Source: an uncultured bacterium
GTDB taxonomy: Bacteria; Hydrothermota; UBA3073; NMUJ01; CBEVQO01
Direction of reading: 5' to 3'
DNA length: 64,000 bases
Assembly: GCA_965552055.1 (NCBI GenBank)
Contig: CBEVQO010000004.1
Coordinates: forward strand, 32,001-96,000
Shown here: positions 3,371 to 63,456 of the stretch, in pieces
How positions within the stretch are numbered: position 1 is the first letter of the stretch
How the letters are laid out: each line of letters begins with the position of its first letter
Made by a program: the position numbers and the translations under genes
The notes under the pieces: generated by a model
Database searches by the model: none
Told to the model about the DNA's origin: nothing
The model's input: only the letters and a program-made list of their open reading frames with translations

Positions 3371-3904
3371 ATGAAAAAAGCAGTGTTCCTGGATAGAGAC
3401 GGTACTTTAACTTCAGAGAGAAACTACACATTATCACCCGAAGAGATTAAAATATTGCCACAAACTCCCGAAGCGATAAAAATTTTGCATCAAAGTGGAT
3501 TTTTGACAATCGTTGTTACGAATCAATCGTGTGTCGGTAAAGGATTAATAACTCTGGAAGAGCTCCATCGAATTCATCATGCGTTCTTAAAAATTCTCGA
3601 AAAAGAAGGTGCTTCGATTGATGCTATTTATTTTTGTCCGCATCATCCGGATGCAGGATGCAAATGCAGAAAGCCCAGCCCCGAGCTCATATTTAGAGCG
3701 GCAAAAGATTATAATATTGATTTATCCAAATCATATTTGATAGGTGACCAGAAAAGGGATATTGAAATGGGCAAGCGTGCTGGTTTGAAAACAGTAATGG
3801 TGCTGACAGGTTATGGCGAGGAACAGAGTAAAGAAGCGAATCCTGACTTTATCGCAAAAGATGTCCTTGAAGCAGCAAAGATAATAACCCAACTAATACT
3901 TTAA
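3371..3904 (+). CDS. gmhB: D,D-heptose 1,7-bisphosphate phosphatase (HAD IIIA)
   Basis: FLDRDGT, VVTNQS, CPHHP...C.CRKP, IGD...DI motifs. Confidence 0.85.
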   Translation: MKKAVFLDRDGTLTSERNYTLSPEEIKILPQTPEAIKILHQSGFLTIVVTNQSCVGKGLITLEELHRIHHAFLKILEKEGASIDAIYFCPHHPDAGCKCRKPSPELIFRAAKDYNIDLSKSYLIGDQKRDIEMGKRAGLKTVMVLTGYGEEQSKEANPDFIAKDVLEAAKIITQLIL

Positions 3905-4222
3905 AATTTTGAATTCCACGCGACGATTTAATGCCCGCTCTTCTTCTGTTTCGCCTTTTGTAAGGGGATATTTCTCACCGTATCCTACTGCTTTTATTCT
4001 ATCCGGTGAAATACCGTGCTCTACGAGATATTGTTTTACTGCGAGGGCACGCTTTTCTGAAAGCTTTAGATTATATTCTTCGCTACCGAGTTCATCAGTG
4101 TGACCCGCTATTTCGACTATCATACCAGGGTGTTCTTTCATAATCCTCACGAGTCTATCGAGTTCATATTTTGATTCGGGTTTCAGTTCGTATGAATCGA
4201 AATCAAAGAAAATATTTCGCAA
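3893..4222 (-). CDS. OmpA-like peptidoglycan-binding domain; probably the frameshifted C-terminus of the WD40 gene
   Basis: NIFFDFD, IAGHTD..G...YN..LS..RA, NRRVE; weak TTG start and no signal peptide of its own. Confidence 0.85.
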   Translation of the reverse strand: MRNIFFDFDSYELKPESKYELDRLVRIMKEHPGMIVEIAGHTDELGSEEYNLKLSEKRALAVKQYLVEHGISPDRIKAVGYGEKYPLTKGETEEERALNRRVEFKILKY

Positions 4223-5523
4223 AATAATTTTGCTTCAAAAGGAAAAGCATCCCCATATTTTCCTTTTTCATATTCGAAATCTGCTTTTGTAAGAATTTTA
4301 TTACCAAAATATACTTCTTTAATTTCTTTATCATCAAAAACTATTCCTTTGACATAGAGGTCTGGTTCTATCAATTTTGTTTGGTAAATTTTTATGACAG
4401 GAGGTGCATTTATCGTTATTTTGTCTTCTTCTATCCAGCCTTTTAATCCTTCTTCTGTTTTTACATAGAGATATTTATCAGCTACTTTTATTATTTGTAA
4501 TTTGAGGGGTGGTATAAGTTTTTTTATTTCGCCTGTTAAACTTTTTAAATCTGCTTCTTCCTTTAAATACACAATTTGCCCTTCAAAAAGTTTATAAAAC
4601 TGCCATATTCTTATAGTTCTATCATTACCGCCTGATGCAAGGTATTTGCCATCTGGTGAAAAACAAACAGAATTCATCCAACCTTTGTAACCTTTCAATG
4701 TCTTCATGCATTCCCCTGTTGCTACCCGCCATATTTTTATTGTGTTATCATAACTGTTTGATACTATATATCTGCCATCGGGTGAAAAGCAAATAGAATT
4801 TACTAAACCTTTATGACCTTTCAATGTTTTTATGCATTCTCCCGTTGCTATCTGCCATATTTTTATTGTGTTATCAACGCTGCATGACGCCAGATATTCG
4901 CCATCGGGTGAAAAACAAATAGACAATACAGGTTTTTCATGTCCCTTCAATGTCTTTATACATTTTCCTGCTGCTACCTGCCATATTTTTATTGTTTTAT
5001 CAGCACTGCATGATGCAAGGTATTTGCCGTTAGCTGAAAAACAAACAGAATACACATAACCTTTATGTCTTTTCAGTGTTTTTATGCATTCTCCTGTTGA
5101 TACTTGCCATATTTTTATTGTTTTATCATCACTGCATGATGCGAGGTATTTACCATCGGGTGAAAAACAAACAGACCTTACCCAATTTTTATGTCCCTCT
5201 AATGTCTTAATGCATTTTCCTGTTGATACTTGCCATATTTTTATCGTTTTATCATAACTGCACGATGCTAGATATTTGCCATCGGGCGAAAAACAAACAG
5301 AAAGTACATAATCTTTATGTCCTGTCAATGTCTTTATGCATTTTCCTGTTGCTACTTCCCAGATTTTTATTGTGTTATCACTGCTACCCGATGCAAGATA
5401 TTTGCCATCAGGTGAAAAGCACACTGAATAAACACCGCCTTCGTGCCCCTTTAGTGTCATAATACATTCCTGTGCACTGGCTATGCTAAAAAGTAGAAAA
5501 ACAAACAAAGGAAGGTGCTTCAT
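4183..5523 (-). CDS. Secreted 7-repeat WD40 beta-propeller with SH3-like and partial Ig-like segments
   Basis: Signal peptide (...SIASA/QE); seven 42-aa GH..V.SVCFSPDGKYLAS.S.D.TIKIW units; YVKTEEGLKGWI SH3-like motif. Confidence 0.9.
   Translation of the reverse strand: MKHLPLFVFLLFSIASAQECIMTLKGHEGGVYSVCFSPDGKYLASGSSDNTIKIWEVATGKCIKTLTGHKDYVLSVCFSPDGKYLASCSYDKTIKIWQVSTGKCIKTLEGHKNWVRSVCFSPDGKYLASCSDDKTIKIWQVSTGECIKTLKRHKGYVYSVCFSANGKYLASCSADKTIKIWQVAAGKCIKTLKGHEKPVLSICFSPDGEYLASCSVDNTIKIWQIATGECIKTLKGHKGLVNSICFSPDGRYIVSNSYDNTIKIWRVATGECMKTLKGYKGWMNSVCFSPDGKYLASGGNDRTIRIWQFYKLFEGQIVYLKEEADLKSLTGEIKKLIPPLKLQIIKVADKYLYVKTEEGLKGWIEEDKITINAPPVIKIYQTKLIEPDLYVKGIVFDDKEIKEVYFGNKILTKADFEYEKGKYGDAFPFEAKLFCEIFSLISIHTN
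4600..5457 (-). repeat. Seven 126-bp WD40 coding repeats with high mutual identity
   Basis: Recurring plus-strand blocks such as ccatatttttat and ccatcgggtgaaaa at a 126-bp period. Confidence 0.9.
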
Positions 5524-5531
5524 ACACCCTC

Positions 5532-6260
5532 CTATCTGCCATACAGCAACCTCTCTGCAAGTATCACTGGTAAATCTGCCTCTATTATTTTGCGCTGCGC
5601 AAGCCGAATATCATAATCAACCCTTATAATGCGAAAATGCTTCTTATCTGTATCATAAATACCAAAAGAGGCTCGGGGGTCAAAATCACGGGGCTGACCC
5701 ACACTTCCAACATTTATCAAATATTTTTTGCCATCTTCTATAAAAAACTCCTCTCTATCAATCATGAAAATATCAAGGTTTTCATCAAGCATAAATGTAA
5801 CTGGAACATGTGAATGCCCTATAAAACAAACATTTTCCTTTATAACCTGCAGTTCATAGTATGCATCATAAGCATTCAGGATATATTTCCATTCTTCAGG
5901 AGAATTCGGTGAAGCATGTACAAAAAGCAAATTTTCATATTTTAAAGTTAAAGGCAATTTTGATAAAAAGTCAAAGTTATCTGGTGTTAATTTTTTCATC
6001 GTCCATTCGATTGCCGTGCGGGCATTGGGATTGAACCAGTCGAGCGGTGTCTTCATACACACGGCAGAATCATGATTTCCCATCACAATTTTATCTGTTA
6101 ATTTTTTAACAATGTCACAGCATTCGTTGGGATTGGCACCATACCCCACAATATCTCCAAGGCACACTATTTTGTCGGGCTTTTCTTCTTCTATCTTTTT
6201 GAGAACAGCGTTAAGGGCTTCGAGATTTCCATGTATATCACTTATTATCGCTATCTTCAT
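5532..6260 (-). CDS. Calcineurin-like metallophosphoesterase
   Basis: SDIHGN, LGDIVGYG, GNHD, GHSH, NVGSVGQPRD. Confidence 0.9.
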   Translation of the reverse strand: MKIAIISDIHGNLEALNAVLKKIEEEKPDKIVCLGDIVGYGANPNECCDIVKKLTDKIVMGNHDSAVCMKTPLDWFNPNARTAIEWTMKKLTPDNFDFLSKLPLTLKYENLLFVHASPNSPEEWKYILNAYDAYYELQVIKENVCFIGHSHVPVTFMLDENLDIFMIDREEFFIEDGKKYLINVGSVGQPRDFDPRASFGIYDTDKKHFRIIRVDYDIRLAQRKIIEADLPVILAERLLYGR

Positions 6261-6666
6261 CTTTCAAAACATAATCTTTATAAATTCTATCAAGCACACC
6301 GTTTACAAATTTTCCTGAATCTTCTGTCGAGTATTTTTTTGCAAGTTCTATTGCTTCATCAATTGAAACTTTTGGTGGTATATCTTCCATATATAGCATT
6401 TCAGCTGTTGCCATGCGTAAAATGTTGCGGTCAAGTGATGCAAGTCGTTTCAAATCCCAGTTTATCAATACTTTTTTTAAAATTTCGTCTATTTCTTCAA
6501 TATGTGAAATTGTTGTATCCACAAGTCTTTTTGCAAATTTTTTTACGGATTTTGGTGGATTGTATCTATAAAAAAGGTCTTCAAGTATTTCGTCAATTGA
6601 ATTTTCTGATAATTCGTGGCAATAGAGTGCTTCTACTGCTATTTCTCTTGCCCATCTTCTTTTCAT
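6238..6666 (-). CDS. nusB: Transcription antitermination factor NusB
   Basis: RR.ARE, W...RL..LDRNILR, IDEAIELAKKY, FVNGVLD; follows ribH. Confidence 0.95.
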   Translation of the reverse strand: MKRRWAREIAVEALYCHELSENSIDEILEDLFYRYNPPKSVKKFAKRLVDTTISHIEEIDEILKKVLINWDLKRLASLDRNILRMATAEMLYMEDIPPKVSIDEAIELAKKYSTEDSGKFVNGVLDRIYKDYVLKDEDSDNK

Positions 6667-7127
6667 TTAGCTTTTTCAATTATTGAGAGCATTTCAAGAG
6701 CTGTGTAAGCTGCTTCGTATCCTTTGTTACCCTGTTTGCCACCTGCGCGCTCAAGTGCCTGATTTAAATCATCGGCTGTTATTATGCCGAAGACAACGGG
6801 TATTTCGGAAGTGCGTGAAAGAGCACCTATACTCCTTGTTACTTCACCTGCTATGTAATCGAAATGAGGGGTTTCGCCCCGGATAACCGCACCAAGACAT
6901 ATTATGGCATCGTAGCGCTTGCTTTTGACGAGTATTTGGGCAATTTGGGGGATTTCAAAAGAGCCCGGCACCTTGAATACTTCTATGTCATCGTCATTCG
7001 CACCATGTTTCAAAAGGCATTCTCTCGCACCATCAAGAAGTTTATCCGTTATAAGTGAATTAAAGCGCGATTGCACTATTGCAAACTTTTTACCCTTTGC
7101 AGATATTTCGGGATAATGAATTTTCAT
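6663..7127 (-). CDS. ribH: 6,7-dimethyl-8-ribityllumazine synthase
   Basis: SRFN, VPGSFEIP, LGAVIRGETPHFDY, GNKG. Confidence 0.97.
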   Translation of the reverse strand: MKIHYPEISAKGKKFAIVQSRFNSLITDKLLDGARECLLKHGANDDDIEVFKVPGSFEIPQIAQILVKSKRYDAIICLGAVIRGETPHFDYIAGEVTRSIGALSRTSEIPVVFGIITADDLNQALERAGGKQGNKGYEAAYTALEMLSIIEKAK

Positions 7128-7133
7128 AGCCCC

Positions 7134-7907
7134 TCACTTTTTAAATTTTATATCTTCTAACTTAAATTTTTCTATACCTTTGCCTTCGAATTTCACATAA
7201 ACATATTTTCTGAAAAGGTCAAGTTCGCTTACAATTCCTTTACCTGCTGGAGTTTCTACTTCATCACCGACCATCGGGAATTTATCCTGTATTTCTTCGT
7301 AAAATTCTTTTTCAAAAGCAAGACAGCACATAAGGCGACCACAGACACCTGTCACTTTGTCTATTCCACAGCTGAGACGCTGTAATTTTATCAAACTTAC
7401 GCCTATTGATTCAAATTCTTTAATAAAGGTAGAACAACAAGTTGGCAAGCCACACACTCCGTATTCTGTGAAGAGTTTTGCATAATCGCGTGCACCCATT
7501 TGCTGGAGCTCTACCTTTAACTTAAATTGCCTTGCAGTGGCTCTTGCTAAATTTTTGAGATTAAGTTTCTTTTCTGATAAATATCTTATCTTTATGTAAG
7601 TGCCATCAAATTTTATGTGATGGTCTGCGATTTTTACAGGTAAATCTTTTTCTTTTATTTTTTGTCTGATAAAATCAATAATTTTTTCTGCTTTTTTCTT
7701 TTGCTCTTCGTATTTTTTAAGGTCTTCTTCTGTTGCTTTTCTAACGATTAAAAATCCGACTTTTCCTTCTTTTATTATGTTTATGATTTCACCTATATCC
7801 AGTCCTGCGTGAGTTTTAAATATGACAATATCACCTGGTTTATAATCTAAGTATGGTGTAAAAGATGCTTTTACTATATCTGGACCTGTTTTTATTTCGG
7901 CAATCAT
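7134..7907 (-). CDS. PSP1 / RicT (YaaT) family Fe-S protein
   Basis: G.CG.PTCC..F and G.CGRLMCCL.FE motifs. Confidence 0.85.
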   Translation of the reverse strand: MIAEIKTGPDIVKASFTPYLDYKPGDIVIFKTHAGLDIGEIINIIKEGKVGFLIVRKATEEDLKKYEEQKKKAEKIIDFIRQKIKEKDLPVKIADHHIKFDGTYIKIRYLSEKKLNLKNLARATARQFKLKVELQQMGARDYAKLFTEYGVCGLPTCCSTFIKEFESIGVSLIKLQRLSCGIDKVTGVCGRLMCCLAFEKEFYEEIQDKFPMVGDEVETPAGKGIVSELDLFRKYVYVKFEGKGIEKFKLEDIKFKK

Positions 7908-8012
7908 ACTAAAATTTTTAATAAAATAATGAGGATGTCAAGTTGAAAATTTTTTTATTTTTTTCTTGACAAATCTCCTTTTTGAATAAATATGGAGTAG
8001 AAAGGGGGTGTT

Positions 8013-8270
8013 ATGAAGAGGGTATGGTATCTTATAGGTTGTGCGGTGTTGTCGCTAGCTCTTATGGGCTGTGGTAAGAAGGTGAAGTATGCAGATGAAG
8101 CCACGCTCGGTAGATTGGACGAGTTGATTACCGAATATGAGAAAGCGGATAAGGAGTTGAATGCTCTTACGGGCGAAAAGGAGAAGCTGATGAAGCAGAA
8201 GTCGGATCTTGAGAAACAGGCAGAGGAATTGAAGTCAAAAATTGCAGAACTTAAAGGGGAGGGGAAATGA
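8013..8270 (+). CDS. Small coiled-coil lipoprotein
   Basis: Lipobox LMGC, heptad-rich body, GGGGG RBS. Confidence 0.7.
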   Translation: MKRVWYLIGCAVLSLALMGCGKKVKYADEATLGRLDELITEYEKADKELNALTGEKEKLMKQKSDLEKQAEELKSKIAELKGEGK

Positions 8271-8842
8271 GAGGCATACTTGCAATAATGGCATTGGTGA
8301 CATTTGGGGGACTGCTTTACGCTCAGGAAGGAACAATAACGGATGAAGAAGCGAAAACACTCCTGGAACAATATAATGAAACGGGGAAGTTGAAGGCTGA
8401 TGAAGCAGAGGCACTGATTAAATATTATGAGGCAAAGATTAGCGAGAAAAAGAGTGAGATTGATAAGATAAAGCCCGAGGTTGAGAAATTGAGAGCAGAG
8501 GTTGATAAACTGACCGCTCTGGTTGATAGTTTGCAGAAAGTAATAGCCGAGTTAGAAGCTGCGAAAAAGGGAGCAGAAGAAGTAGCCAAGGAAGAGAAAG
8601 CAGAGGTTAAACCCGGTGAATACAAATATTATGTTGTGAAGAAAGGCGACTGGCTATCAAAGCTCGCAGAATATCCAGAGGTATATGGTCACGGATACTA
8701 CATGCTATGGCCCGAGATCTACAAGGCAAATAAGGACATAATAAAAGACCCGAATCTGATATATCCGGGGCAGAAGCTAAAGATACCTGTGCTAACACCT
8801 GAGCAAAAAGAGGCGTTAAAGAAGAAATATCTTAAAAAGTAA
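8267..8842 (+). CDS. Secreted coiled-coil LysM-domain protein
   Basis: Signal peptide; YVVKKGDWLSKLA...W.EIY.ANKD.IKDPNLIYPGQKLKIP. Confidence 0.9.
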   Translation: MRGILAIMALVTFGGLLYAQEGTITDEEAKTLLEQYNETGKLKADEAEALIKYYEAKISEKKSEIDKIKPEVEKLRAEVDKLTALVDSLQKVIAELEAAKKGAEEVAKEEKAEVKPGEYKYYVVKKGDWLSKLAEYPEVYGHGYYMLWPEIYKANKDIIKDPNLIYPGQKLKIPVLTPEQKEALKKKYLKK

Positions 8843-50891: not shown

Positions 50892-53800
50892 ATGGATGTT
50901 AATGTAATTTATAGAAATTTGTGTCCTGTTTGCGAAAGGGAGCTCACACTCTCCGAGATTGAAAAAGGCATCTGTCAGCGCACAGGCAGACCCTTCAAGG
51001 ATGTCAAATTCGAGAGGAAACTAAAAGATTTTGAAAAGTTTTTCAGAGAATTTGTCGGAAGCCGTCCCCGTAATATTCAAAGAATATGGGCAAAAAGAAT
51101 CTTAAAAGGCGAATCCTTCGCAGCAATAGCACCAACAGGAATAGGAAAAACAGTTTTCAGTATTTGCATGGCTATGTTCTTATCAAAGGAAAAGAAAAAA
51201 ACTTATTGCATACTGCCAACTACAACACTCCTCGAAAATATCAGAGAAAAAGTTTATAATTTCCTGAAACAGAAAAAAGAAAATATAAACATACTTTTCT
51301 ATCATTCAAAGATAAGGAAACAGAAAGAAGCAAAAGAAAGATTGGAAAAAAGGGATTACGATGTGCTCGTAACAACAAATGCCTTTCTTGCAAAAAACTT
51401 TGACCTTATAAAAGATGTAAAATTTGATGTAATCTTTGTGGACGATGTAGATGCACTTATGAAAGCATCAAAGAACATAAACAGAATTTTAATGCTCGCA
51501 GGATATACGGAAGATGAAATTAAAAAGGGAGAACCTGAAGAAGATAAAAAAGGTATTTTCATGATTTCTACTGCAACGGGTACACCGGGTAGAGGAACAA
51601 ATTTATTCAGAAAATTATGCAACTTCGATGTTGGATATGTAAAAGAGACCGTTAGAAATGTTTCGGATATTTTTGTGGAAGAAAAATCGATTGAAAAGTT
51701 AAAAGAAATTTTACGAATTTGTGGAACAGGTGGGTTAATCTTTACAACATCTGAAGAAGAAGCAAAAGAACTTTACGAAAAGTTAAAAGAAGATTTCAAT
51801 TGTGATATAATGATTTCAACGCAAAAAACGAATTTAAAAGATTTTGAATATGGCAAAATAGATATTTTGATAGGAGTTGGAAGTTATTATGGTTTACTTG
51901 TAAGAGGGATTGACCTTCCCGAAAGAATAAGATATGCGATATTTTATGGAGCACCTCGTTTCGCGTTCAGGATAAACCTCGAAGATATAAAAAATGGTGT
52001 GGCTCTATATCTTGCAAGAGTAATCGCAAGAAAAGAAAAAAATAGAGGACTTATTAAACTTGTAAATTACAGGGCTATTGACAAAATAAAAGAAATTTTG
52101 AAAGAAAAATTACAAAGCTATTCAGAGGAGGATTTACAATCTCTCGGTATTTATCTTAAAGGCGACAGGATGATAATCCCGGATATAAAGACCTATATTC
52201 AGGGCTCCGGAAGGACATCTCGTCTCTATGCCGGCGGTATCACAAAAGGTTTAACTATATTGATGGAAGAAGATAAAAATCTGCTCAATTTCTTTATAGA
52301 AAAAGCAATGATTAGAGATATAACCTTTGAAAAATTTGAAGAAGAAAAAATCAAAGAAATTCTGGAAGAAGTTGATAGAGACAGAGAGAATATAAGATTG
52401 CGTCACAGGGCAAAAGATTTGTTGAAGCCGATTTTATTCATCGTGGAGAGTCCGAATAAAGCACGCCAGATTGCAAGTTTCTTTGGCAAACCGAGTGTAA
52501 GAAAAATATTCGGAATAAATGTTTACGAAGTTTTAACAGGTGATAAGTTGCTTATGATAGCACCAACTTTTGGACATATGGTTGACCTTACAGAAGAAAA
52601 TGTTGGATTTTATGGAATTGAGATAAAAGATGGAAACTTTATCCCTGTTTACGGAACTATCAAAAGATGCAAAAAGTGTAACTTTCAATTTGTAAAAGAT
52701 ATAGATTTTTGTCCGAGGAAAAATTGTGGTAGCAAAGATATTTTTGATGCAAAAAATCAGATAAGGGCTTTGCAGAGGTTAGCGCTTGAGATGGAAAGAG
52801 TTTACATAGGAACAGACCCGGATACGGAAGGCGAAAAAATTGCTTGGGATGTTTATAACCTTTTGAAACCTTATGCAAAGGAGATAAAGAGAGCAGAATT
52901 CCACGAAGTAACGAAAAAAGCAATAGAAGAAGCTCTCAAAGATTTGAGAGATATCGATGAAAACCTTGTAAAAGCACAGCTCGTTAGAAGGATAGAAGAC
53001 AGATGGACGGGTTTTGAGCTTACAAAAAGGTTAACAAAAGCATTTTCAGATGAAAAAGAACGCTTATTATCCGCTGGAAGAGTGCAATCACCGGTACTCA
53101 AATGGATAATCGACAGGACAGAAGAACATAAGAAGAAACAGAAAATATTTATATCAGAAGATGGTAAAATATGGATTAATCTGCCGGAAGGTGTTGATGT
53201 GAAAGATAAGTTAAAGGTTAAGATAAAAATAGCAGATGTATATGAAAAAGATTTAATCGTTCATCCTTTTACTACGAATACGATGTTGCGTGATGCCAGC
53301 AGGCTGTTGCGTCTATCAGTAAAAGATGTGATGGCGAGTGCACAAAAATTGTTTGAAATCGGATTGATAACCTATCACAGAACAGATAGCGAAAGAATAT
53401 CCGAAAAGGGACACGAAGTAGCAAGGCGCTTACTTGAGAAAGATTTCGTAAAAAGGACATTTGGTGAAGGAGGGGCACATGAAGGAATTAGAATAACGAA
53501 ACCTTTGCGTCCCGAAGAATTGAGAATTTACTTTGAAGAACTCGGAATTGTAGCACCTTTGACAAAAGAAGATTTTAATCTTTATAAGTTGATTTTCAAC
53601 AGATTTCTTGCATCCCAAACCCATCCAGCAAAAGTTAAATATCAAAAAGTTATTTATGTGGTTGATGGGCATGAAATTGAAGAAGAGCGTCCCGTTGAAG
53701 CCAGTGGAAAATCTTATGAATTCTGCCCTTATATTATAAATGTCAGGGATTCTTTAAGAGAAGGGGAATATGTATTAAAGGGCAAAGTAGAAAAGATACC

Positions 53801-54143
53801 AGTTGTGCCTTTGTTCACACAATCAGATGTAATAGCACAGATGAAAGAAAGGGGAATAGGGAGACCTTCTACTTATTCTGCGATACTTACAAAGCTTTTC
53901 GAAAGGGGGTATATCTACGAATTAAATAAGACGCAAAAAATAATAGCAACGACATTGGGGAAAAAGTGCGGAGAATATCTTTTCACACATTACAGTCAAT
54001 TTGTATCAGAAGAAAGGACAAAACAATTGGAAGAAATTATGGACGAAATAGAAAGGGGTGAGAAGGACTATAAAAAAGTACTCGAAGAACTTTACGAAGA
54101 AATACAATCGCTTAATAAATTTAATTCCTGCTTGACAGATTGA
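50892..54143 (+). CDS. rgy: Reverse gyrase
   Basis: N-terminal CPVC; APTGIGKT; DDVD; YIQGSGRTSRL; Toprim IVESP.KA and TDPDTEGE; topo IA SAGRVQ, ITYHRTDS, GIGRPSTY. Confidence 0.97.
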   Translation: MDVNVIYRNLCPVCERELTLSEIEKGICQRTGRPFKDVKFERKLKDFEKFFREFVGSRPRNIQRIWAKRILKGESFAAIAPTGIGKTVFSICMAMFLSKEKKKTYCILPTTTLLENIREKVYNFLKQKKENINILFYHSKIRKQKEAKERLEKRDYDVLVTTNAFLAKNFDLIKDVKFDVIFVDDVDALMKASKNINRILMLAGYTEDEIKKGEPEEDKKGIFMISTATGTPGRGTNLFRKLCNFDVGYVKETVRNVSDIFVEEKSIEKLKEILRICGTGGLIFTTSEEEAKELYEKLKEDFNCDIMISTQKTNLKDFEYGKIDILIGVGSYYGLLVRGIDLPERIRYAIFYGAPRFAFRINLEDIKNGVALYLARVIARKEKNRGLIKLVNYRAIDKIKEILKEKLQSYSEEDLQSLGIYLKGDRMIIPDIKTYIQGSGRTSRLYAGGITKGLTILMEEDKNLLNFFIEKAMIRDITFEKFEEEKIKEILEEVDRDRENIRLRHRAKDLLKPILFIVESPNKARQIASFFGKPSVRKIFGINVYEVLTGDKLLMIAPTFGHMVDLTEENVGFYGIEIKDGNFIPVYGTIKRCKKCNFQFVKDIDFCPRKNCGSKDIFDAKNQIRALQRLALEMERVYIGTDPDTEGEKIAWDVYNLLKPYAKEIKRAEFHEVTKKAIEEALKDLRDIDENLVKAQLVRRIEDRWTGFELTKRLTKAFSDEKERLLSAGRVQSPVLKWIIDRTEEHKKKQKIFISEDGKIWINLPEGVDVKDKLKVKIKIADVYEKDLIVHPFTTNTMLRDASRLLRLSVKDVMASAQKLFEIGLITYHRTDSERISEKGHEVARRLLEKDFVKRTFGEGGAHEGIRITKPLRPEELRIYFEELGIVAPLTKEDFNLYKLIFNRFLASQTHPAKVKYQKVIYVVDGHEIEEERPVEASGKSYEFCPYIINVRDSLREGEYVLKGKVEKIPVVPLFTQSDVIAQMKERGIGRPSTYSAILTKLFERGYIYELNKTQKIIATTLGKKCGEYLFTHYSQFVSEERTKQLEEIMDEIERGEKDYKKVLEELYEEIQSLNKFNSCLTD

Positions 54144-55137: not shown

Positions 55138-55656
55138 ATGGACTTGATGGAAAAAATAAGGCTTGTGCCCGATTTCCCGCAAAAGGGGGTGCTGTTCAGA
55201 GACATTACGACATTGCTACAGGATAAGGATGCTTTCAAAGAGGTCATAGATATTCTTTATGAGCGCTACAGGGGTAAAGGAATTGATAAAGTTGTTACGA
55301 TTGAAGCAAGGGGGTATCTCTTTGGTGGAGCACTTGCTTACAGACTGGGTGCAGGCGTGGTGCCCATCAGAAAACCCCAGAAACTCCCATGGAAAACGAT
55401 AAGAGAAGAATACGAACTGGAGTACGGCAGAAATATTCTTGAAATTCATGAAGATGCAATAAAAAAGGGCGAGAAGGTGGTGATATTTGATGATGTGCTT
55501 GCTACAGGTGGAACTGCTCTTGCTGCATGCAAACTTTGTGAAAGATTGGGAGGAGAAATTTATGAAGTAGCATTTTTGATGGAATTGAAGAAATTAAATG
55601 GAAGGGAAAAGTTGAAAGATTATAAAGTATTTGCGATACTGGAGGATGAGAGATGA
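55138..55656 (+). CDS. apt: Adenine phosphoribosyltransferase
   Basis: PDFP.KGVLFRDITTLL, EARG, Y.LEYG, DDVLATGGT. Confidence 0.96.
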   Translation: MDLMEKIRLVPDFPQKGVLFRDITTLLQDKDAFKEVIDILYERYRGKGIDKVVTIEARGYLFGGALAYRLGAGVVPIRKPQKLPWKTIREEYELEYGRNILEIHEDAIKKGEKVVIFDDVLATGGTALAACKLCERLGGEIYEVAFLMELKKLNGREKLKDYKVFAILEDER

Positions 55657-56963
55657 TAGAAATTCAAAGAACAACCGCCCTTGATATAATTGAGCATTTA
55701 GGCGCGTATGGAACACCTCCGGAATATGGAGTGCGGTATTTTACCGAAGGCATACAGCATCTGCTTGATTTCTACAAAAAGGAATACTTCGCTGAATTTA
55801 TAAAAAATGGTGGCTCTATTTTCCGACTGGTTACAGGGGGGTATGGCTCGGGCAAAACCCATTTCCTCTACTGCATAAGGGATGTCGCATGGGAAGAAAA
55901 TTATCTCGTGAGCTATGTTTCGCTTTCACCGAGAGAATGTCCATTTACAGACCTGTCAAAAGTGTATCAAAGCATAGTTAACAATTTGATGTATCCGATG
56001 ACAGAAAAAGAGTTAAAAGACCCTACAGAGCACGGTATTAACGGTGTATTAAAAGTATTTGTGAGGGAGAAATTTTTGCAGGGTGATGGCAACGAAAAGA
56101 TAGATAATTTGTTAAAATCTCTGAGAATGGATTTACAATCTGTGGAAAGCAGCAGTTTTGCTCACGCAGTTTATCATGCTATAAGAAGTTTAGTAGAGGA
56201 AGATTTTGATATTTATGAGGGATGTCTTCAATGGTTAAAAGGCGAAGAACCTCCATCGGAGATAAAATTGCGTTACGGCATAACAGAGAAGTTAGATAAA
56301 ACAACAGCTCAAAGGAGAATAAGGTCTCTTGCTCAAACTGTTCGCAAAATGGGCTATTCTGGTCTTGTTTTGATATTTGATGAAGCAGAGATGATGACAA
56401 GCATAGCCACTCAGCGCTCCAAAAAGCAGGTTTTGAACAATTTGCGCGAATTGATAGATGAATGCGCAAGAAGGGGGCGTTTACCTTCTACTGTTATGTT
56501 TTATGCGATACCCGATAAAAGAGAGTTACTCGATGGTGAAGGTCCGCATTATGAAGCATTGCGTCAGAGGGTTTCTTCTTACTTCAACAATATGACAAAT
56601 CCATCCGGAGTGATAATAGACCTTGAGAATCAAAATCTTTTGAGGATAAGAGAGGATGAGCTTTTGAAGAAAATAGGTGATAAAATATCGCAAATATATT
56701 TTGTTGCATATCCGGAGGCACTTATTCCACCAAATCAGTTAAAAGAGATGATACAGGGTATAGTTGATGAGGTTATAAAGGTAGCACCGGGTGTTGTATC
56801 TCCGCGCAGGTTGTTTGTGAAAAGTTTGATAGCTGTTTTACATCTGTCAAGAGCAAGAGCAGGGGCACCTGTTTTGGAAGATGAAATAAGGGACATCGTA
56901 AAAGAAAACTTACAGGTAGAAGTAGAAAGACAGGAAAATTATTCAGAAGAAGAGGAATTTTGA
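55653..56963 (+). CDS. DUF2791 / BrxD-like P-loop ATPase
   Basis: GTPP..G, FRLV.G.YGSGKTHFL, VSYV.LS, GY.GLVLIFDEAE, Y.AL.QR. Confidence 0.75.
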   Translation: MIEIQRTTALDIIEHLGAYGTPPEYGVRYFTEGIQHLLDFYKKEYFAEFIKNGGSIFRLVTGGYGSGKTHFLYCIRDVAWEENYLVSYVSLSPRECPFTDLSKVYQSIVNNLMYPMTEKELKDPTEHGINGVLKVFVREKFLQGDGNEKIDNLLKSLRMDLQSVESSSFAHAVYHAIRSLVEEDFDIYEGCLQWLKGEEPPSEIKLRYGITEKLDKTTAQRRIRSLAQTVRKMGYSGLVLIFDEAEMMTSIATQRSKKQVLNNLRELIDECARRGRLPSTVMFYAIPDKRELLDGEGPHYEALRQRVSSYFNNMTNPSGVIIDLENQNLLRIREDELLKKIGDKISQIYFVAYPEALIPPNQLKEMIQGIVDEVIKVAPGVVSPRRLFVKSLIAVLHLSRARAGAPVLEDEIRDIVKENLQVEVERQENYSEEEEF

Positions 56964-56992
56964 CAATATAATTCCAAGTTTTTCATATTACA

Positions 56993-57460
56993 ATGTGGAT
57001 GGCAAGAAATATGAATGCAAAATTCAAAAAAGCTGAATATTTGATTTATGCTTTGACTTCGCCTCAACGAGAAGAAGGTCATCTTTCTTTAAAAGAAAAT
57101 CAAAAATTAGAAATGGAGTTAATAGATATAATTACTGATCTTCAAGATGAAAGTGAAAAAAGAGATTTTGTGAATTTTTTATTCAAGATGGCAAAAGAAG
57201 ATGCCATTATAACATTTGTTTTACAATTGTTTTTAAGATATTTTGATGTTTTTAAAAAAATTGTTGCGAAGAAAAAAGAAAAATTGCTAAAATATGCTTC
57301 ACACAAAGATCCGATGATTGGCTATCTTTCTATAAGTTTGTTTTTGAAACTTCTACAAAGTGAGTTAAAGGAAAGTAGTGTCAGCATAGAAAATAACGAA
57401 ATATTAAAGAAGCGTATGCAAATAGTGATGAAGAATAAAGAAATATTCGGGTTAACTTAG
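56993..57460 (+). CDS. Hypothetical all-helical (HEAT-like) protein
   Basis: Helical pattern, L..ASHKDPMI; TTGACA-N15-TTTCAT upstream. Confidence 0.55.
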   Translation: MWMARNMNAKFKKAEYLIYALTSPQREEGHLSLKENQKLEMELIDIITDLQDESEKRDFVNFLFKMAKEDAIITFVLQLFLRYFDVFKKIVAKKKEKLLKYASHKDPMIGYLSISLFLKLLQSELKESSVSIENNEILKKRMQIVMKNKEIFGLT

Positions 57461-58360
57461 GACTTTACAAAATTTCTCGATAATTTCTTCGATTAAATCT
57501 TTCTTTACAATTTTGTTCAGCCAATTTTGGGGTATTGCCTCGTATCCGTAATAGGTGCCGCTCAACCCTCCTGTAACCGCACCAATTGTATCCGTATCGC
57601 CACCGAGATTCACAGCGCGTAAAAGAGAATCGGTAAAGCTTTGGGTCGTTAAAAAACTCCATAAAGATGCTTCAAGGGTATCAATGACATATCCCGAGCT
57701 CTTTATCAAATCTTCATTTAAGTTATAAATATTGCAATCAAGGATTCTGCTAAAATGCTTTAACTCCGAAAAGAAAGGTTCATCTTTATAAAATTCTTCA
57801 ATTTCTTTGACAGCACTGTAATATGCTTTGAATTTATCTTCGCCTTCAATGATGTGAACGATTATTCTGCAATAAAATGAACATGCTATCAGGCTTCTTG
57901 GATGTGCATGTGTTATTGCTGAAATTTTATGTATTTTTTCACAGAAATCTTTTAAAGGTAATTTTTTAAAATAAAAAGCTGCTGGTAAAATTCGCATGAG
58001 TGAGCCATTGCCGTTTGACCACTCATCTTTGCCACCCGATTTTTCAGGCGAAGCACCCCTCATAATTCTTTGAAGCGCTAATCGAGTGGTTCTGCCAATA
58101 CCTATCGGATAACCAAAGGGGGTCAAATATCCTTCTTTATACCATTTTATAAAATTTTGTGCAATATCGTTTAAGTCAAATCCTTTAATCAAACTATCAC
58201 AAAGACAAAGTGTAAGCGATGAATCATCAGACCATACCCCCTCTTTTAAATCTTTTATAGGATTTTTGCGTAAATATCCGCGGGAAGAACCCTCACGCTG
58301 AAAGCCAAGGACATCACCTAAAATAACACCCCATAATCCTCCTTTAACTCTCCCTTCCAT
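57452..58360 (-). CDS. ADP-ribosylglycohydrolase (DraG/ARH family)
   Basis: GD.LG, WSDDS, GNGSLMRI, TH, GGDTDT. Confidence 0.93.
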   Translation of the reverse strand: MEGRVKGGLWGVILGDVLGFQREGSSRGYLRKNPIKDLKEGVWSDDSSLTLCLCDSLIKGFDLNDIAQNFIKWYKEGYLTPFGYPIGIGRTTRLALQRIMRGASPEKSGGKDEWSNGNGSLMRILPAAFYFKKLPLKDFCEKIHKISAITHAHPRSLIACSFYCRIIVHIIEGEDKFKAYYSAVKEIEEFYKDEPFFSELKHFSRILDCNIYNLNEDLIKSSGYVIDTLEASLWSFLTTQSFTDSLLRAVNLGGDTDTIGAVTGGLSGTYYGYEAIPQNWLNKIVKKDLIEEIIEKFCKVLS

Positions 58361-58423: not shown

Positions 58424-58450
58424 TTGACAAAGGTGGATGATGTTTAAATT
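58424..58450 (+). promoter_or_regulatory. promoter TTGACA-N15-TAAATT for the DUF6754-like operon
   Basis: Read directly. Confidence 0.65.
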
Positions 58451-58452
58451 AG

Positions 58453-59565
58453 ATGATGAATATGATTATTTTCATTCTGGTTTTGCAGATTGCACCACCT
58501 GAATCTTTGAAAGCTTATGATACGCCTGCTGATGATGGAACATCTATAACACTTGAATGGAAGCTATCACCTGATGATGCTAAAATTCAGGGATATGAGA
58601 TTTACAGGGCATCAGAAGATAATCCTGATGAATTTATTTTTGTGAAATTTGTTCCAAATGGTGTGAATAAAACACAGGATAAAGATACTGCTTTTGTAGC
58701 TGGCAAAAAATATTTTTATAAAATAAGGGCAAGGGGAGAGGGAGAAATTTATTCTGGTTTTACAAATGTTGCAGTGGCGATTCCCCGTCCCCAATGGTTT
58801 AATGTAAAGCTTGTAAATGTTCTTGTTGCCACTTTGCTTTATACTTTTATAATAGTGTTTTTCATAAGGGCAGCTCGCAGAGGCGTTAAGCTATTTATAA
58901 GGAGGATACCGGGATTGGATGCTCTTGAAGAGGCAGTGGGAAGGGCTACGGAGATGGGCAAACCTGTTCTCTTTGTCCCGGGTATATCCTCAATCTCTGA
59001 TATTGCCACTATTGCTGCTTTAAATATACTGGGAAGGGTTGCTAAAAAGACAGCAGAATATGAGACAAGATTGATAGTGCCAAATATAGACCCCATTGTT
59101 ATGACAGTGGCTCAGGAAGTTGTTAGGCAGGCGTATACTGAGGCAGGCAGACCCGACATTTATAGAAAGGAAGATATATTTTTCTTAACGAGCTCACAAT
59201 TTGCTTATGCTGCGGGTGTAGACGGTATAATGATGAGGGAGCGTCCAGCTACGAATCTTTTCATGGGTTGGTTTGCAGCAGAATCATTAATCCTTGCGGA
59301 AGCAGGCAATATGACGGGTGCAATACAGATTGCAGGAACTGATTCTACAGACCAGTTGCCATTCTTCATTGTTTCCTGTGATTATACAATAATGGGTGAA
59401 GAGTTATATGCTGCATCTGCCTATTTATCGCGGGAGCCACTTCTTCTTGGTACTGTAAAGGGTCAGGATTTAGGCAAAGCAATTCTGATGTTTTTGCTGG
59501 TGCTCGGAAGTATTTTTGGTTTATTTGGCAGTAAAATAATTTATAACCTGTTCAATTTGCCATGA
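58453..59565 (+). CDS. FN3 + DUF6754-like membrane protein
   Basis: FN3 (DTP.DDG.SI.L.W...YEIYR...YFYKIRA), TM helix, IRRIPGLDALEEAVGRATEMGKP, AESLILAE, GEELYAASAYLS. Confidence 0.75.
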   Translation: MMNMIIFILVLQIAPPESLKAYDTPADDGTSITLEWKLSPDDAKIQGYEIYRASEDNPDEFIFVKFVPNGVNKTQDKDTAFVAGKKYFYKIRARGEGEIYSGFTNVAVAIPRPQWFNVKLVNVLVATLLYTFIIVFFIRAARRGVKLFIRRIPGLDALEEAVGRATEMGKPVLFVPGISSISDIATIAALNILGRVAKKTAEYETRLIVPNIDPIVMTVAQEVVRQAYTEAGRPDIYRKEDIFFLTSSQFAYAAGVDGIMMRERPATNLFMGWFAAESLILAEAGNMTGAIQIAGTDSTDQLPFFIVSCDYTIMGEELYAASAYLSREPLLLGTVKGQDLGKAILMFLLVLGSIFGLFGSKIIYNLFNLP

Positions 59566-60197
59566 ACAGGAGATTGCCTTTAGCTGTCTGTTTTATTACT
59601 GGAATAATAATGCTGATACAGTTTTTTATCCCGCATCCTCTTTTCTCTAAAAAGATTTACAATGAAGCACTGAGATGGGCGATAGTTATCTCTGCATTTA
59701 CCCTGATAATAGGTATAGAGAGTTTGATAAGGCTTCATGCCAATAAGATTCGCAGAAAGGTTCCTGGCTGGGGTTATAGTGTTATTGCAATTGTTATGAT
59801 GATTTTTGTTGCGGTTGTGGGGATATGGAAGGGGATAGGTGAAGGTTCTCTTTTTATAAAGATTTTCAGATATGTGCTTGCACCTCTGAATGCCACAATG
59901 TTTTCGATGCTCGCTTTCTTTATGGCATCTGCGGCTTACAGGTCTTTCAGGGCAAGGACTCCGGAAGCAGTTTTGCTTTTATGTGTTGCACTTTTTGTGA
60001 TGTATGGAAGGGTGCCTATTGGTCACATGACCTGGGAGAAAATTCCTGATATCGTTGAGTGGATATTGAGGTATCCGAGTATGGGTGCGCAGAGGGGCAT
60101 TTTGATAGGTGTTGGTTTGGGTGTTATGGCAACATCTTTGAAGATGCTACTTGGTATTGAGCGTCAGTGGCTCGGAGGAGCAGGTGGAGGTACTTAA
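59562..60197 (+). CDS. Uncharacterised ~6-TM membrane protein
   Basis: Hydrophobic helices; TMFS.LAFF.ASAAYR.FRAR; G.ER.WLG. Confidence 0.75.
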   Translation: MNRRLPLAVCFITGIIMLIQFFIPHPLFSKKIYNEALRWAIVISAFTLIIGIESLIRLHANKIRRKVPGWGYSVIAIVMMIFVAVVGIWKGIGEGSLFIKIFRYVLAPLNATMFSMLAFFMASAAYRSFRARTPEAVLLLCVALFVMYGRVPIGHMTWEKIPDIVEWILRYPSMGAQRGILIGVGLGVMATSLKMLLGIERQWLGGAGGGT

Positions 60198-61032
60198 AAA
60201 ATTATATTATTTGCCACGCAAAGTCATATTTATACTGATTGCGGTAGCTGTGATTATTCCTTTGATTTTGAAAATCGGTCTACCTGTTAAATGGACGCCA
60301 CCCGTAGAAGCTATTTTTAATGCGATAGATACTATGCCAGATAATCAGGCTGTGCTTCTGTCGTGCGATTTCGACCCATCCACTCAACCAGAGCTTTACC
60401 CTATGGCACTTGCGATAATAAGACATTGTTTCGCAGCAAAGAAAAAATTACTGGTAATGTCATTATACCCAATGGGAGTTGGTCTGGCTGCTATGGCGCT
60501 TGAAGAAGCAAAAGAAGATTTCCCCGATGTCGAATATGGTAAAGATTATGTATTTCTGGGATATACACCGGGGACAGGCATTGTAATATTGAAAATAGGA
60601 GAAAGTATCCAGAAGACATTTGAAAGGGATTATTATGGCACTCCTTTGAACGAATTACCTTTAATGAAAAAGATAAAGAATTATGATGATATAGGGCTAG
60701 CTGTGTGTCTTACGGGTTCTGGAATATGGACTTCATGGGTTTTGTATGCAAATACCACATATAAGCAAGCACTTGCAATAGGCGTTACTGCGGTTATAGC
60801 TACGCAGGTTTATCCTTATCTTGCAACGGGACAAATAATAGGGATGATGGGAGGACTAAAAGGTGCAGCAGAATATGAGGAGTTGCTCGCATATCACGGC
60901 TATTACAATAAGAAGAGGATAGCAACAAGGGGTATGGATGCTCAAACTATCACTCACCTATTGATAATCGCAATGATAATCTTTGGCAACATAAATTATG
61001 TTATTTTAAGAAGGAGGAAAATTGTCCGTTAG
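60184..61032 (+). CDS. Uncharacterised membrane-anchored alpha/beta protein
   Basis: N- and C-terminal TM; DFDPS..PEL.P, YG.DYV.LGY.PG, G..GG.KGAAEYE, MDAQ; GTG start after GGAGGA. Confidence 0.75.
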   Translation: MEVLKKLYYLPRKVIFILIAVAVIIPLILKIGLPVKWTPPVEAIFNAIDTMPDNQAVLLSCDFDPSTQPELYPMALAIIRHCFAAKKKLLVMSLYPMGVGLAAMALEEAKEDFPDVEYGKDYVFLGYTPGTGIVILKIGESIQKTFERDYYGTPLNELPLMKKIKNYDDIGLAVCLTGSGIWTSWVLYANTTYKQALAIGVTAVIATQVYPYLATGQIIGMMGGLKGAAEYEELLAYHGYYNKKRIATRGMDAQTITHLLIIAMIIFGNINYVILRRRKIVR

Positions 61033-61654
61033 CACGGATATATGGGTGTGGATAGCTGCATTTTTGACACTCTGTATTTATTCTTTCCTTTACAGGGATA
61101 ATCCTTTCTTCAAGCTTGCTGAGCACATTTTTATAGGTGCTAGCGTTGGGTATTCGATAGCACTGACATGGCATCTTGTGGCTATACCCAAAATATATGA
61201 CCCTTTAAAAAGGGCGTTTGCATCCGGAGACCCTGCACAAATAGTTCTCGCCATAATACCCGTTTGCCTCGGAGCATTAATGTTTTCCCGGCTTTTCCCA
61301 AGGATTTCATGGCTATCACTGATACCCATGGGCTACATGATAGGTCTGGGAGCAGGCTTATCGTTACCTCGAGGCTTTCAGGCGTATATTTTCAAGCATA
61401 TACAGAATACAATACTCGTGACACCCATTACTATCAGCCAAGTGATAGCATTTATTGCAGTTATAACGACACTCACCTATTTCTTCTTCTCAGTAGAGCA
61501 TAAAGGACCTGTTCGATATGTTGCCCGTGTAGGAATTTATTTCCTTATGGCATCATTTGGAGCATCATTTGGTTATACCGTTATGGCAAGATTATCATTG
61601 CTCATTGGAAGGTTACAATTTTTGCTAAAAGACTGGTTGGGGATAATTAAATGA
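61022..61654 (+). CDS. Uncharacterised ~6-TM membrane protein
   Basis: SFLY.DNP.FK.AEHIF.G, YFFFS.EH, FGASFGYTVMAR; AGGAGG RBS. Confidence 0.75.
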   Translation: MSVSTDIWVWIAAFLTLCIYSFLYRDNPFFKLAEHIFIGASVGYSIALTWHLVAIPKIYDPLKRAFASGDPAQIVLAIIPVCLGALMFSRLFPRISWLSLIPMGYMIGLGAGLSLPRGFQAYIFKHIQNTILVTPITISQVIAFIAVITTLTYFFFSVEHKGPVRYVARVGIYFLMASFGASFGYTVMARLSLLIGRLQFLLKDWLGIIK

Positions 61655-63456
61655 AAGATTTATCCCTGACGGATTATTTCCGTGTGATAAAAAAAAGAAT
61701 ATGGTGGCTTTTTATTTTTATGATTTCCGTTCCTTTATTTTTGAAATTCACACAGAAAAAACATATTCCCTTATACAGGGCGGTTGCCAGGGTGAAAATT
61801 TTTCCCCGTCGTCCCGTTGTTACCGTATCACAGGGCGGGATAACATGGTGGGAGCAGAGACAGGGACTTGAGACCGAGATTCAAACTGTAAAAAGTTACA
61901 GAGTATTAAAACATGCTGCAAATTTACTCAACTTATTCGAAAACGCACATTCAAAATACGATAGTCTTGGGATAATAGAAAATATTAGGAGAAAAATAAG
62001 AGCATCTCAGGTTAAGAATACCGATTTTATAGAAATACAGGTTACGGATGTGAATCCGGAATTTGCTGCTTCTCTTGCCAATGCAGTTGCGCAGGCTTAC
62101 ATAAAAGAATATGTAGCAGAGAGAATAAGTTCGGAGCAAAAGCAGTTATCTTTTATTGAAGAATATTTGAAAGATGTGGAAAAGATGCTCGAAGAATATA
62201 GCAAAAGATTATCTGATTTTTACGCATCTCCGGAATATGCGAAATTAATGACAGCACAAGAAATGAGGAAAAAACTTGGAGCACTTTATCTTAAACTGGC
62301 TTCGCTTATGCAAACATATAAAGAAGGTTATCCTGAGATACAAAAAATAAAGGAAGAAATAGCGAAAATAACCGAAATTTTGAAAAATTTCCCGGGTTCC
62401 AATATAGAATATGAAAGGCTCACAAGAGATTTAGAGATAAATAAAAAAGTGTATTCGATGTTAAGGACAAAATTGATGGAAATAAAGTTACAGCAGCTTG
62501 AGAAGATAAAAGAACCTGTTCTCGCGAGTCCCGCTGTGCCACCTCGTACGCCGATAAATCCACATACAAAAATTAATCTCGCAATAGGGTTAATGGCAGG
62601 GATAATTTTAGGTATTCTGGCATGTTTTATAGCTGAAGCACTTGACCCGACATTTTCATCAGTTGAAGATATTGAAGCAAAAACAAAATTACCTATAGTG
62701 GGTGTAATACCCGAAATGGTAAGAAGTAAAGAGAAGACATTGATACCAAAGGATACCCCTGAACTGATAAAAGAGTCTTATCTGCTTTTGACAGTCAATT
62801 TAATGCCGAAGATTGAAAATACGAAACATCTTGTCATCACATCTTCCTTGCCGGGTGAGGGTAAAACAACTACTGCTTTAAATCTTGCGCTATCTATAGC
62901 GATGTATGGGAAAAAGGTTCGACTTATCGATTTTGATTTTAAAAAACCAAGTATTTATAGCATTTTCAATATTAGGGCAAATGGTGCAGAGAAAGGATGT
63001 AATATTGTTGATGTCTTGATTGCAAATCCCAGTTTAAGGAAAGATATTTTATCCCAGCCTGCTCTCTCTAACTTTTTCTTCTATGAGGCAGGGAGATATA
63101 TAAAAGATTACAGGCGCTTTATAGAATCGAAAGAATTTGAACATTTACTTATGCTTTTGTCACAAGATGTGGATATTGCGATAATTGATACCTCACCGAT
63201 TTTGACAACATCCGAAAGTTTACTTATAGCCACTAAGTTAAGAAAAGCATTGCTTGTACATAGATTGAAACATACACCAAAAACTGCTCTCGAAAGGGCA
63301 ATTTCTCTTTTAAAGAGAAATGGAGTGGAACTTGTGGGAATAACATTGAACATGATAAAACCAGATGATATTCCTTCATCTTACGGATATTACTACAAAA
63401 AATATTATAAGAAATATTACAAATACGGCTATGCTAAGAAAATGAAATGCTCTTAA
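61651..63456 (+). CDS. Wzc-like polysaccharide copolymerase / BY tyrosine kinase
   Basis: Two TM flanking a coiled coil; SS.PGEGKTT, LIDFD...P, IIDTSP; C-terminal Tyr cluster YGYYYKKYYKKYYKYGY. Confidence 0.9.
   Translation: MKDLSLTDYFRVIKKRIWWLFIFMISVPLFLKFTQKKHIPLYRAVARVKIFPRRPVVTVSQGGITWWEQRQGLETEIQTVKSYRVLKHAANLLNLFENAHSKYDSLGIIENIRRKIRASQVKNTDFIEIQVTDVNPEFAASLANAVAQAYIKEYVAERISSEQKQLSFIEEYLKDVEKMLEEYSKRLSDFYASPEYAKLMTAQEMRKKLGALYLKLASLMQTYKEGYPEIQKIKEEIAKITEILKNFPGSNIEYERLTRDLEINKKVYSMLRTKLMEIKLQQLEKIKEPVLASPAVPPRTPINPHTKINLAIGLMAGIILGILACFIAEALDPTFSSVEDIEAKTKLPIVGVIPEMVRSKEKTLIPKDTPELIKESYLLLTVNLMPKIENTKHLVITSSLPGEGKTTTALNLALSIAMYGKKVRLIDFDFKKPSIYSIFNIRANGAEKGCNIVDVLIANPSLRKDILSQPALSNFFFYEAGRYIKDYRRFIESKEFEHLLMLLSQDVDIAIIDTSPILTTSESLLIATKLRKALLVHRLKHTPKTALERAISLLKRNGVELVGITLNMIKPDDIPSSYGYYYKKYYKKYYKYGYAKKMKCS

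Follow-up and report, generated by a model that had tools for sequence, protein, structure and literature searches.

A four-gene DUF6754 membrane cassette and a long GlmL-like ATPase as a candidate ATP-driven import system in bacteria

A 64,000-nucleotide stretch of DNA from an uncultured bacterium of the phylum Hydrothermota (GenBank assembly GCA_965552055.1, contig CBEVQO010000004.1, positions 32,001 to 96,000; hereafter the window, whose numbering is used throughout) carries at 58424–61654 four overlapping genes for membrane proteins, here called the cassette, which may form the membrane half of an ATP-driven machine. All four lie on the plus strand. Gene 1 (58453–59565) encodes 370 aa, its database form of 367 aa starting at the third Met, and gene 2 (59562–60197) encodes 211 aa. 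Gene 3 (60184–61032, 282 aa) was placed by the open reading frame finder at a TTG start at 60151, which we refined by means of the ribosome-binding site to the GTG at 60184, the most likely start, after a GGAGG site; gene 4 (61022–61654, 210 aa) has a TTG start after AGGAGG. Genes 1 and 2 share an ATGA overlap, genes 2 and 3 overlap by 14 nt and genes 3 and 4 by 11 nt. An initial annotation of the window had described these overlapping genes, quoted six motifs from them, and divided their products into two anchored alpha/beta proteins (genes 1 and 3) and two polytopic ones (genes 2 and 4). The reading frames and overlaps were confirmed, all six motifs fell in conserved columns, and for genes 1 and 3 both the hydropathy scan and the predicted models agreed with the division.

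Gene 1 is a full member of DUF6754 (PF20539, which we take to be InterPro entry IPR046642), a Pfam family catalogued without a function, with E = 2.7e-120 and 400.7 bits against a gathering cut-off of 27. The FN3 domain that had been annotated ahead of DUF6754 stood less firmly, its match (E = 0.0027) being under the cut-off, and FN3 was detected in 10 of 51 aligned members. At least 8,000 DUF6754 proteins are present in the database, and the family of gene 3, to which no Pfam family corresponds, comprises 3,494 clusters at 50% identity. Genes 2–4 reached no Pfam, NCBIfam or PADLOC cut-off and had no sequence relative in the PDB, where the searches returned FN3 matches or noise only. The anti-phage profiles of PADLOC 2.0 (2023 library) gave no family for six proteins at E 0.01; in the Atlas, gene 3 fell into unnamed clusters only and DUF6754 had no usable named match.

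Regarding topology, gene 1 is predicted to comprise a hydrophobic N-terminus (likely a signal peptide), an FN3-like region outside the membrane (aa 26–95), a helix, the Rossmann-type DUF6754 domain in the cytoplasm and a second helix. Gene 3 likewise has two helices flanking a soluble Rossmann-type domain, predicted outside, with a predicted element layout as in DUF6754. These orientations were derived from the positive-inside rule: mean K+R counts were 4.9 and 3.0 on the domain side of DUF6754 versus 0.8 and 0.8 outside, indicating a cytoplasmic domain, and 3.4 and 3.4 at the termini of gene 3 versus 1.4 and 0.9 on its domain side, indicating an outer one, so that the soluble domains of the two proteins are predicted to lie on opposite membrane faces. 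Gene 2, with six hydropathy peaks, appears to be a six-helix protein with its N-terminus inside and an invariant SAAxRxFR in a cytoplasmic loop. Gene 4, predicted N-out, is polytopic as annotated, but only four hydropathy peaks passed the threshold; the six helices claimed for it are probable as read off the alignment.

Domain variants in relatives are consistent with the assignment of outer faces: CARDB repeats occur within the gene 3 domain, OmpA and FN3 domains before DUF6754, and large insertions in two predicted outer loops of gene 2, one of which can hold kelch and PD40 propellers. Ankyrin repeats, which are less typical for the outside, were seen in a predicted outer loop of one gene 2 variant. 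Protein P0276 is an OmpA-DUF6754 fusion, and P0198, from a Planctomycetaceae cluster, is a natural fusion of genes 3 and 4, which we read as having one extra helix. Conservation was strongest in DUF6754, where 43 of 259 columns were conserved at 93% or more, versus 9 of 282 in the more diverse gene 3 alignment, and the GRxTE motif was present in all 151 DUF6754 matches counted. Conserved polar residues lie at or in the helices of all four proteins (D339 and K342 of gene 1; S123, R127 and R178 of gene 2; H258 and N269 of gene 3; T16, S21, N27, E34 and R190 of gene 4). No conserved Cys was found in genes 2–4, and genes 2 and 4 have no Cys column even at 50%, unlike RnfA/RnfE and NqrD/NqrE, which have conserved intramembrane Cys. 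Paralogy of genes 2 and 4 was rejected (E 0.0066 versus 0.0072 for the reversed control), as was an internal repeat in gene 4, which vanished after re-trimming and scored below reversed controls. An analysis of covariation in 113 paired cassettes yielded no signal beyond noise at variable columns.

The AlphaFold models of DUF6754 and gene 3 (predicted local distance difference test scores of 92 and 96, respectively) have a common element order of two helices, six strand-helix units and a final membrane helix. Both domains matched DHS-like NAD/FAD-binding and RCK domains (transhydrogenase dIII 4j16, ACDS epsilon 1ytl, sirtuins, TrkA/KtrA) at Z 8–10 over near-identical template ranges (for instance, 4j16 residues 279–445 with Z 9.3, root-mean-square deviation 3.5 and 139 aligned residues for DUF6754, and residues 279–450 with Z 8.5, 3.6 and 144 for gene 3). 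However, the matches were tied at the level of Rossmann-type background with identities of about 10% and no standout, and neither model had a Foldseek match at E ≤ 0.001. We describe genes 1 and 3 here as having one common Rossmann-type fold in the predicted models and do not claim paralogy itself. A kinship of DUF6754 with ETF-alpha, suggested by a resemblance, was rejected, as the score of 16.05 lay within the shuffle range of 14.5–21.5. As the initial annotation had supposed, no characterised complex matched the cassette by sequence and none stood out by fold.

The four genes recur together in other genomes, again in agreement with the annotation: of 97 distinct DUF6754 matches with at least 4 kb of room, 88 had genes 2, 3 and 4 behind them in this order, in loci collected by searches with the system genes and not sampled at random. 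In three of the nine exceptions, several DUF6754 copies stand in tandem before the other genes, and in six DUF6754 is alone. Four more genes belong to the system. Besides the ATPase these are a 375-aa partner behind it, a small soluble protein, seen in 48 loci, and a small membrane protein, seen in 29, all three found by clustering of neighbours. The initial annotation had noted neither these three genes nor the presence of several cassettes per genome. The most frequent arrangement is small membrane protein, small soluble protein, ATPase, partner and one or more cassettes, found as ATPase-partner-cassette operons in WOR-3-like genomes, Zixibacteria, Elusimicrobiota and Planctomycetota; in the alternative order, found in Bacillota, the cassette stands ahead of ATPase and partner. 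Among 80 metagenomic partner loci, the ATPase was adjacent in 37 of the 65 with upstream room, and a full cassette was present in 17 of the 39 with at least 5 kb downstream.

All eight genes are present in the source genome, scattered across four contigs: the ATPase in the window (1399–3186, minus strand), the partner at G000:C2:398082-399206, the two small companions at C3:183335-183667 and C3:19811-20251, and a second full cassette, 43–51% identical to the first, at C7:97927-101033 (G, C and L labels are ours for genomes, contigs and loci). The ATPase is followed there by LplA and a small gene, presumably YjbQ-like, and because both follow the cassettes in locus L002, with one gene between, a broken-up operon is the simplest history of the scattered genes. 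Across genomes, LplA was found next to 12 of 85 cassette loci and GcvP next to 14 loci of the system; we read these neighbours as operon inheritance.

The ATPase, a 595-aa protein of the ASKHA fold and the sole copy in the source genome, matched PF13941 with E = 4e-131, its core covering residues 9–481. It shares this core and the phosphate motifs with GlmL/MutL of glutamate (methylaspartate) mutase and with Or-4 (PF13941, NF040745, NF040744, TIGR01319), but it is below all three NCBIfam cut-offs (243.5 versus 475 for the GlmL equivalog NF040745, 226.9 versus 600 for Or-4, NF040744, and 176.2 versus 204 for TIGR01319) and has about 115 extra C-terminal residues compared to GlmL/MutL, hence long GlmL. 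Phosphate-1, phosphate-2 and adenosine motifs, counted with ASKHA motif patterns, were intact in 79, 79 and 78 of 81 long GlmL proteins. Long GlmL further differs in its company, a partner with barrel-sandwich, swivel and KOW-type features and a membrane cassette, with no mutase found in the source genome.

Long GlmL, the partner and DUF6754 co-occur across genomes, in samples whose members are kin and not independent. Among 41 genomes of the window's phylum, DUF6754 was found in 40, usually in 2–5 copies, long GlmL in 38 and the partner in 39, and one genome (G030) lacked all three; 14 control genomes had no DUF6754. Among 101 Planctomycetota genomes (the phylum of G041, seed included), 28 carried DUF6754, 26 long GlmL and 26 the partner, the same 26 genomes carrying all three, 2 DUF6754 only and 73 none. 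In Bacillota (the phylum of G045), 58 of 151 genomes had a PF13941 match, mostly of the short form; all 8 genomes with an intact long GlmL, as identified by a frame length of 584–696 aa and a lower score band, carried DUF6754 and the partner, whereas DUF6754 occurred in only 1 of the 50 other MutL-positive genomes, showing that short GlmL does not track it. The link between the cassette and the ATPase at 1399–3186, offered as a possibility in the initial annotation, is thus supported by the operons that join the two elsewhere and by this near-perfect co-occurrence. In relatives, mostly 2–5 cassette copies are present versus 1–2 ATPases, and one genome (G268) has 11 DUF6754 copies.

These data bear directly on the reading that the ATPase is an ordinary reactivase of a B12-dependent mutase, unrelated to the cassette, which would then be a passive or ion-coupled carrier. 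The strong PF13941 match would suit such a role, as would the position of the ATPase gene in the window, 55 kb from the cassette and on the opposite strand. However, the score of the ATPase is about half the GlmL equivalog cut-off, and in the source genome (97% complete) neither GlmE (PF06368) nor a lysine-aminomutase-type subunit (PF09043; one of four other genomes positive as control; methylmalonyl-CoA mutase and PF16552 not searched) was found. The seven B12-binding matches there were all in frames of 402–837 aa, none of them GlmS-sized. Since it is the long and not the short form of GlmL that tracks DUF6754, this reading is largely refuted by co-occurrence, and we consider it very improbable.

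A part of one paper, which deals there with short MutL only, describes MutL/GlmL, with a diol-dehydratase study as its reference, as a chaperone that serves to reactivate mutases (PMC4682846), and in a part of another 'glutamate mutase' is assigned to Dtur_1345-1347 (PMC5167688). If the link to the cassette is functional, long GlmL proteins would have been misread in genome annotation as evidence of glutamate mutase. In the open literature (subscription papers and supplements lay outside the scope) we found no paper on DUF6754, PF20539 or, among the papers listed, the cassette system, and none on PF13941, TIGR01319 or 'methylaspartate mutase accessory'.

Two side observations concern the ATPase. 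In locus L217 (6306–10007), a 1,233-aa protein has its GlmL domain from about residue 695, and its N-terminal half may be a B12 mutase; proteins of similar length occur in G257 and G260. In addition, the genomes of loci L171, L172, L173 and L186 have, besides the standard system, a divergent second pair of ATPase and partner at these loci, where the stretch retrieved contains no cassette.

Cargo clues come from the neighbouring genes. Of 19 Bacillota loci, which come from 6 genomes, 12 had a peptidase, amidohydrolase or amino-acid catabolic gene at a distance of at most 2.5 kb and 7 had none; these loci are a subset of the DUF6754 matches of those genomes, taken in two batches, the first picked by eye. 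The best handle on the cargo is locus L207 (5651–13158), where genes for hydroxyproline dehydratase, Xaa-Pro dipeptidase and TetR directly precede the cassette on the same strand and a DUF885 gene comes after it. On this circumstantial evidence, peptides or amino-acid derivatives are most likely.

The eight-gene system is real, widespread and new as a gene system. Starting from the observed gene content, order, co-occurrence, copy numbers and intact ATPase motifs, we infer physical assembly, ATP hydrolysis, coupling, transport and cargo, and judge it about an even chance that the cassette is the membrane half of an ATP-driven machine, likely an importer with swappable membrane cassettes powered by long GlmL and its partner. 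The importer with swappable units is suggested by the constant cytoplasmic face, the variable outer face, the conserved polar residues of the helices and the many cassettes per ATPase. A channel of about 16 helices would be formed by genes 2 and 4 and by the two helices each of genes 1 and 3. Outside, cargo would be received or selected by the gene 3 domain and by the variable outer domains (FN3, CARDB, propellers), and in the cytoplasm the ATPase module would dock on DUF6754 and drive gating by its ATP turnover. Several cassettes per genome would use one common ATPase module, as in group II ECF transporters, in which several small polytopic membrane units share one ATPase module. The present system is not a member of that group, because its ATPase is of the actin fold and not an ABC-type P-loop protein; by sequence, no S-component, EcfT or binding-protein family reached its cut-off (BPD_transp_1 at E 0.044 was under the cut-off), and no ABC ATPase was among the most recurrent neighbour clusters.

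The fuller proposal falls somewhat short of even in our estimate: an actin/Hsp70-fold ATPase, in place of an ABC or P-type one, would power interchangeable four-protein cassettes, each with a Rossmann-type domain on either membrane face, that import peptides or amino-acid derivatives. This would be a new class of primary active transporter. It would be near-universal in one candidate phylum, scattered across many other bacterial phyla and possibly present in archaea, as the Atlas cluster of gene 3, partly archaeal, offers a lead. To our knowledge, no solute transporter is energised by an ASKHA-fold ATPase. If correct, the proposal would introduce a new energising principle for membrane transport and might account for the nutrition of many uncultured anaerobes. 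Should transport prove not to be its function, the system would still be a conserved eight-gene ATPase-membrane machine with no described counterpart.

Several observations weigh against import. No likeness to any known transporter was detected, by structure for genes 1 and 3, which were folded, or by sequence for all four genes. Genes 1 and 3 show marginal kinship in sequence, their profile comparison running in register over 212 columns at E 0.02 with 1 of 10 shuffles scoring higher and another almost equal. The count of catabolic neighbours in Bacillota has no background rate and stems from amino-acid-rich genomes, and no such catabolic enzyme family recurs among the clustered neighbours of other loci. 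Of the partner loci with at least 5 kb downstream, 22 of 39 have no full cassette there. Exceptions to co-occurrence are three genomes with DUF6754 and neither soluble gene (G009, G095 and G098), one with the partner and a broken ATPase and no DUF6754 (G153), and one with a cassette and only short MutL proteins, without long GlmL or partner (G240). The cassette of the last genome (L196, G240:C1:2550055-2553588) has diverged strongly and no longer contains the GRxTE motif, which in this single case fits GRxTE being the ATPase dock. In addition, ASKHA proteins also serve as kinases, substrate activators and enzyme remodellers.

In an unlikely alternative, import is coupled to chemistry: the ATPase would modify the cargo on its arrival, as a kinase of the ROK kind or as an activator that uses ATP in the way of subunit A of hydantoinase/oxoprolinase, and a swivelling-type domain of the partner would be the carrier. 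The ATPase has a weak Hydantoinase_A match (E 2.3e-5), the partner an RraA-like one in its middle part (E 0.21) beside weak matches to barrel-sandwich hybrid repeats, and a fusion of GntR to GlmL suggests binding of a small ligand. However, the partner alignment has no invariant His or Cys, and no second catalytic subunit recurs among the clustered neighbours. Lipoylation or biotinylation of the partner was tested separately and rejected, the canonical hairpin Lys being present in only 1 of 77 repeats by comparison with the lipoyl-type motif of the source genome. The C-terminal domain of the partner is presumably KOW-like; neither the partner nor the two small companions belong to a Pfam or NCBIfam family of their own.

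The GntR fusion lies in locus L072 (10101–12218), where a GntR helix-turn-helix joined to long GlmL heads a full operon, and frames of similar length exist in G028 and G036. It could also be taken as a sign of transmembrane signalling, with the outer domains sensing a ligand and DUF6754 switching or sequestering an ATPase that acts on other targets in the cell. The high variability of the outer domains, the several paralogous cassettes per ATPase and the RCK gating domains among the tied fold matches would agree with this, but about 16 helices with conserved polar residues would exceed the usual need of signalling, no output domain recurs in the operon, and the fusion was examined in one locus only; we regard signalling as rather unlikely.

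Finally, the cassette could be an envelope motor or exporter, moving protein or polymer outward at the expense of ATP or exerting force on the cell wall. One DUF6754 protein among 120 matches listed carries an OmpA peptidoglycan-binding domain, FN3 arrays of up to about 1,200 aa in relatives could cross the periplasm, and a gene for Wzc, a protein of polysaccharide export, follows gene 4 in the source genome. This linkage is not conserved: among 85 cassette loci of at least 9 kb other than the source locus, Wzc was found at none, a Wza-like gene at 1 and a Wzi-like gene at 3, and no secretin or substrate gene recurs among the clustered neighbours. Moreover, because Bacillota cassettes occur without any N-terminal outer domain and the gene 3 cluster is partly archaeal, the cassette is not tied to one envelope type, and we find a motor or exporter improbable compared to an importer.

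At the source locus itself, the Wzc-like tyrosine kinase gene (61651–63456) begins within the stop of gene 4 through an ATGA overlap, a link local to this genome. The cassette transcript may run on into it, because no terminator-like site was found between the two genes. A second Wzc-like gene, judged so by its sequence start, follows about 3.5 kb further, with a BamB-like propeller gene between (L158:5003-6823). Upstream, the annotation had proposed one promoter for the cassette. A perfect sigma-70 -35 hexamer (TTGACA, 58424–58429, plus strand) is indeed present, but it has no passing -10 box on that strand, and promoter-like sites overall were at chance level (18 found versus 20.7 expected). 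A site matching 10 of 12 positions in this region lies on the minus strand, overlaps the -35 box and points to a divergent ADP-ribosylglycohydrolase gene (57452–58360), which was found beside none of the 85 other cassette loci.

Elsewhere in the window, a WD40-like repeat frame (4183–5523) and an OmpA-like frame (3893–4222) overlap in different reading frames within 3893–5523 and are possibly one frameshifted gene. The frame at 50892–54143 presumably encodes a reverse gyrase, and the one at 55653–57460 a BrxD-like P-loop ATPase with a small gene downstream. Outside the window, we take L158:8982-10150 to be an RnfE/RnfA-like gene pair separate from the other rnf genes, and in L020, L024 and L036 (about 4500–8800) a lone DUF6754 without FN3 ends a run of genes that seem to resemble HPr, PTS enzyme I and a sugar-phosphate isomerase.

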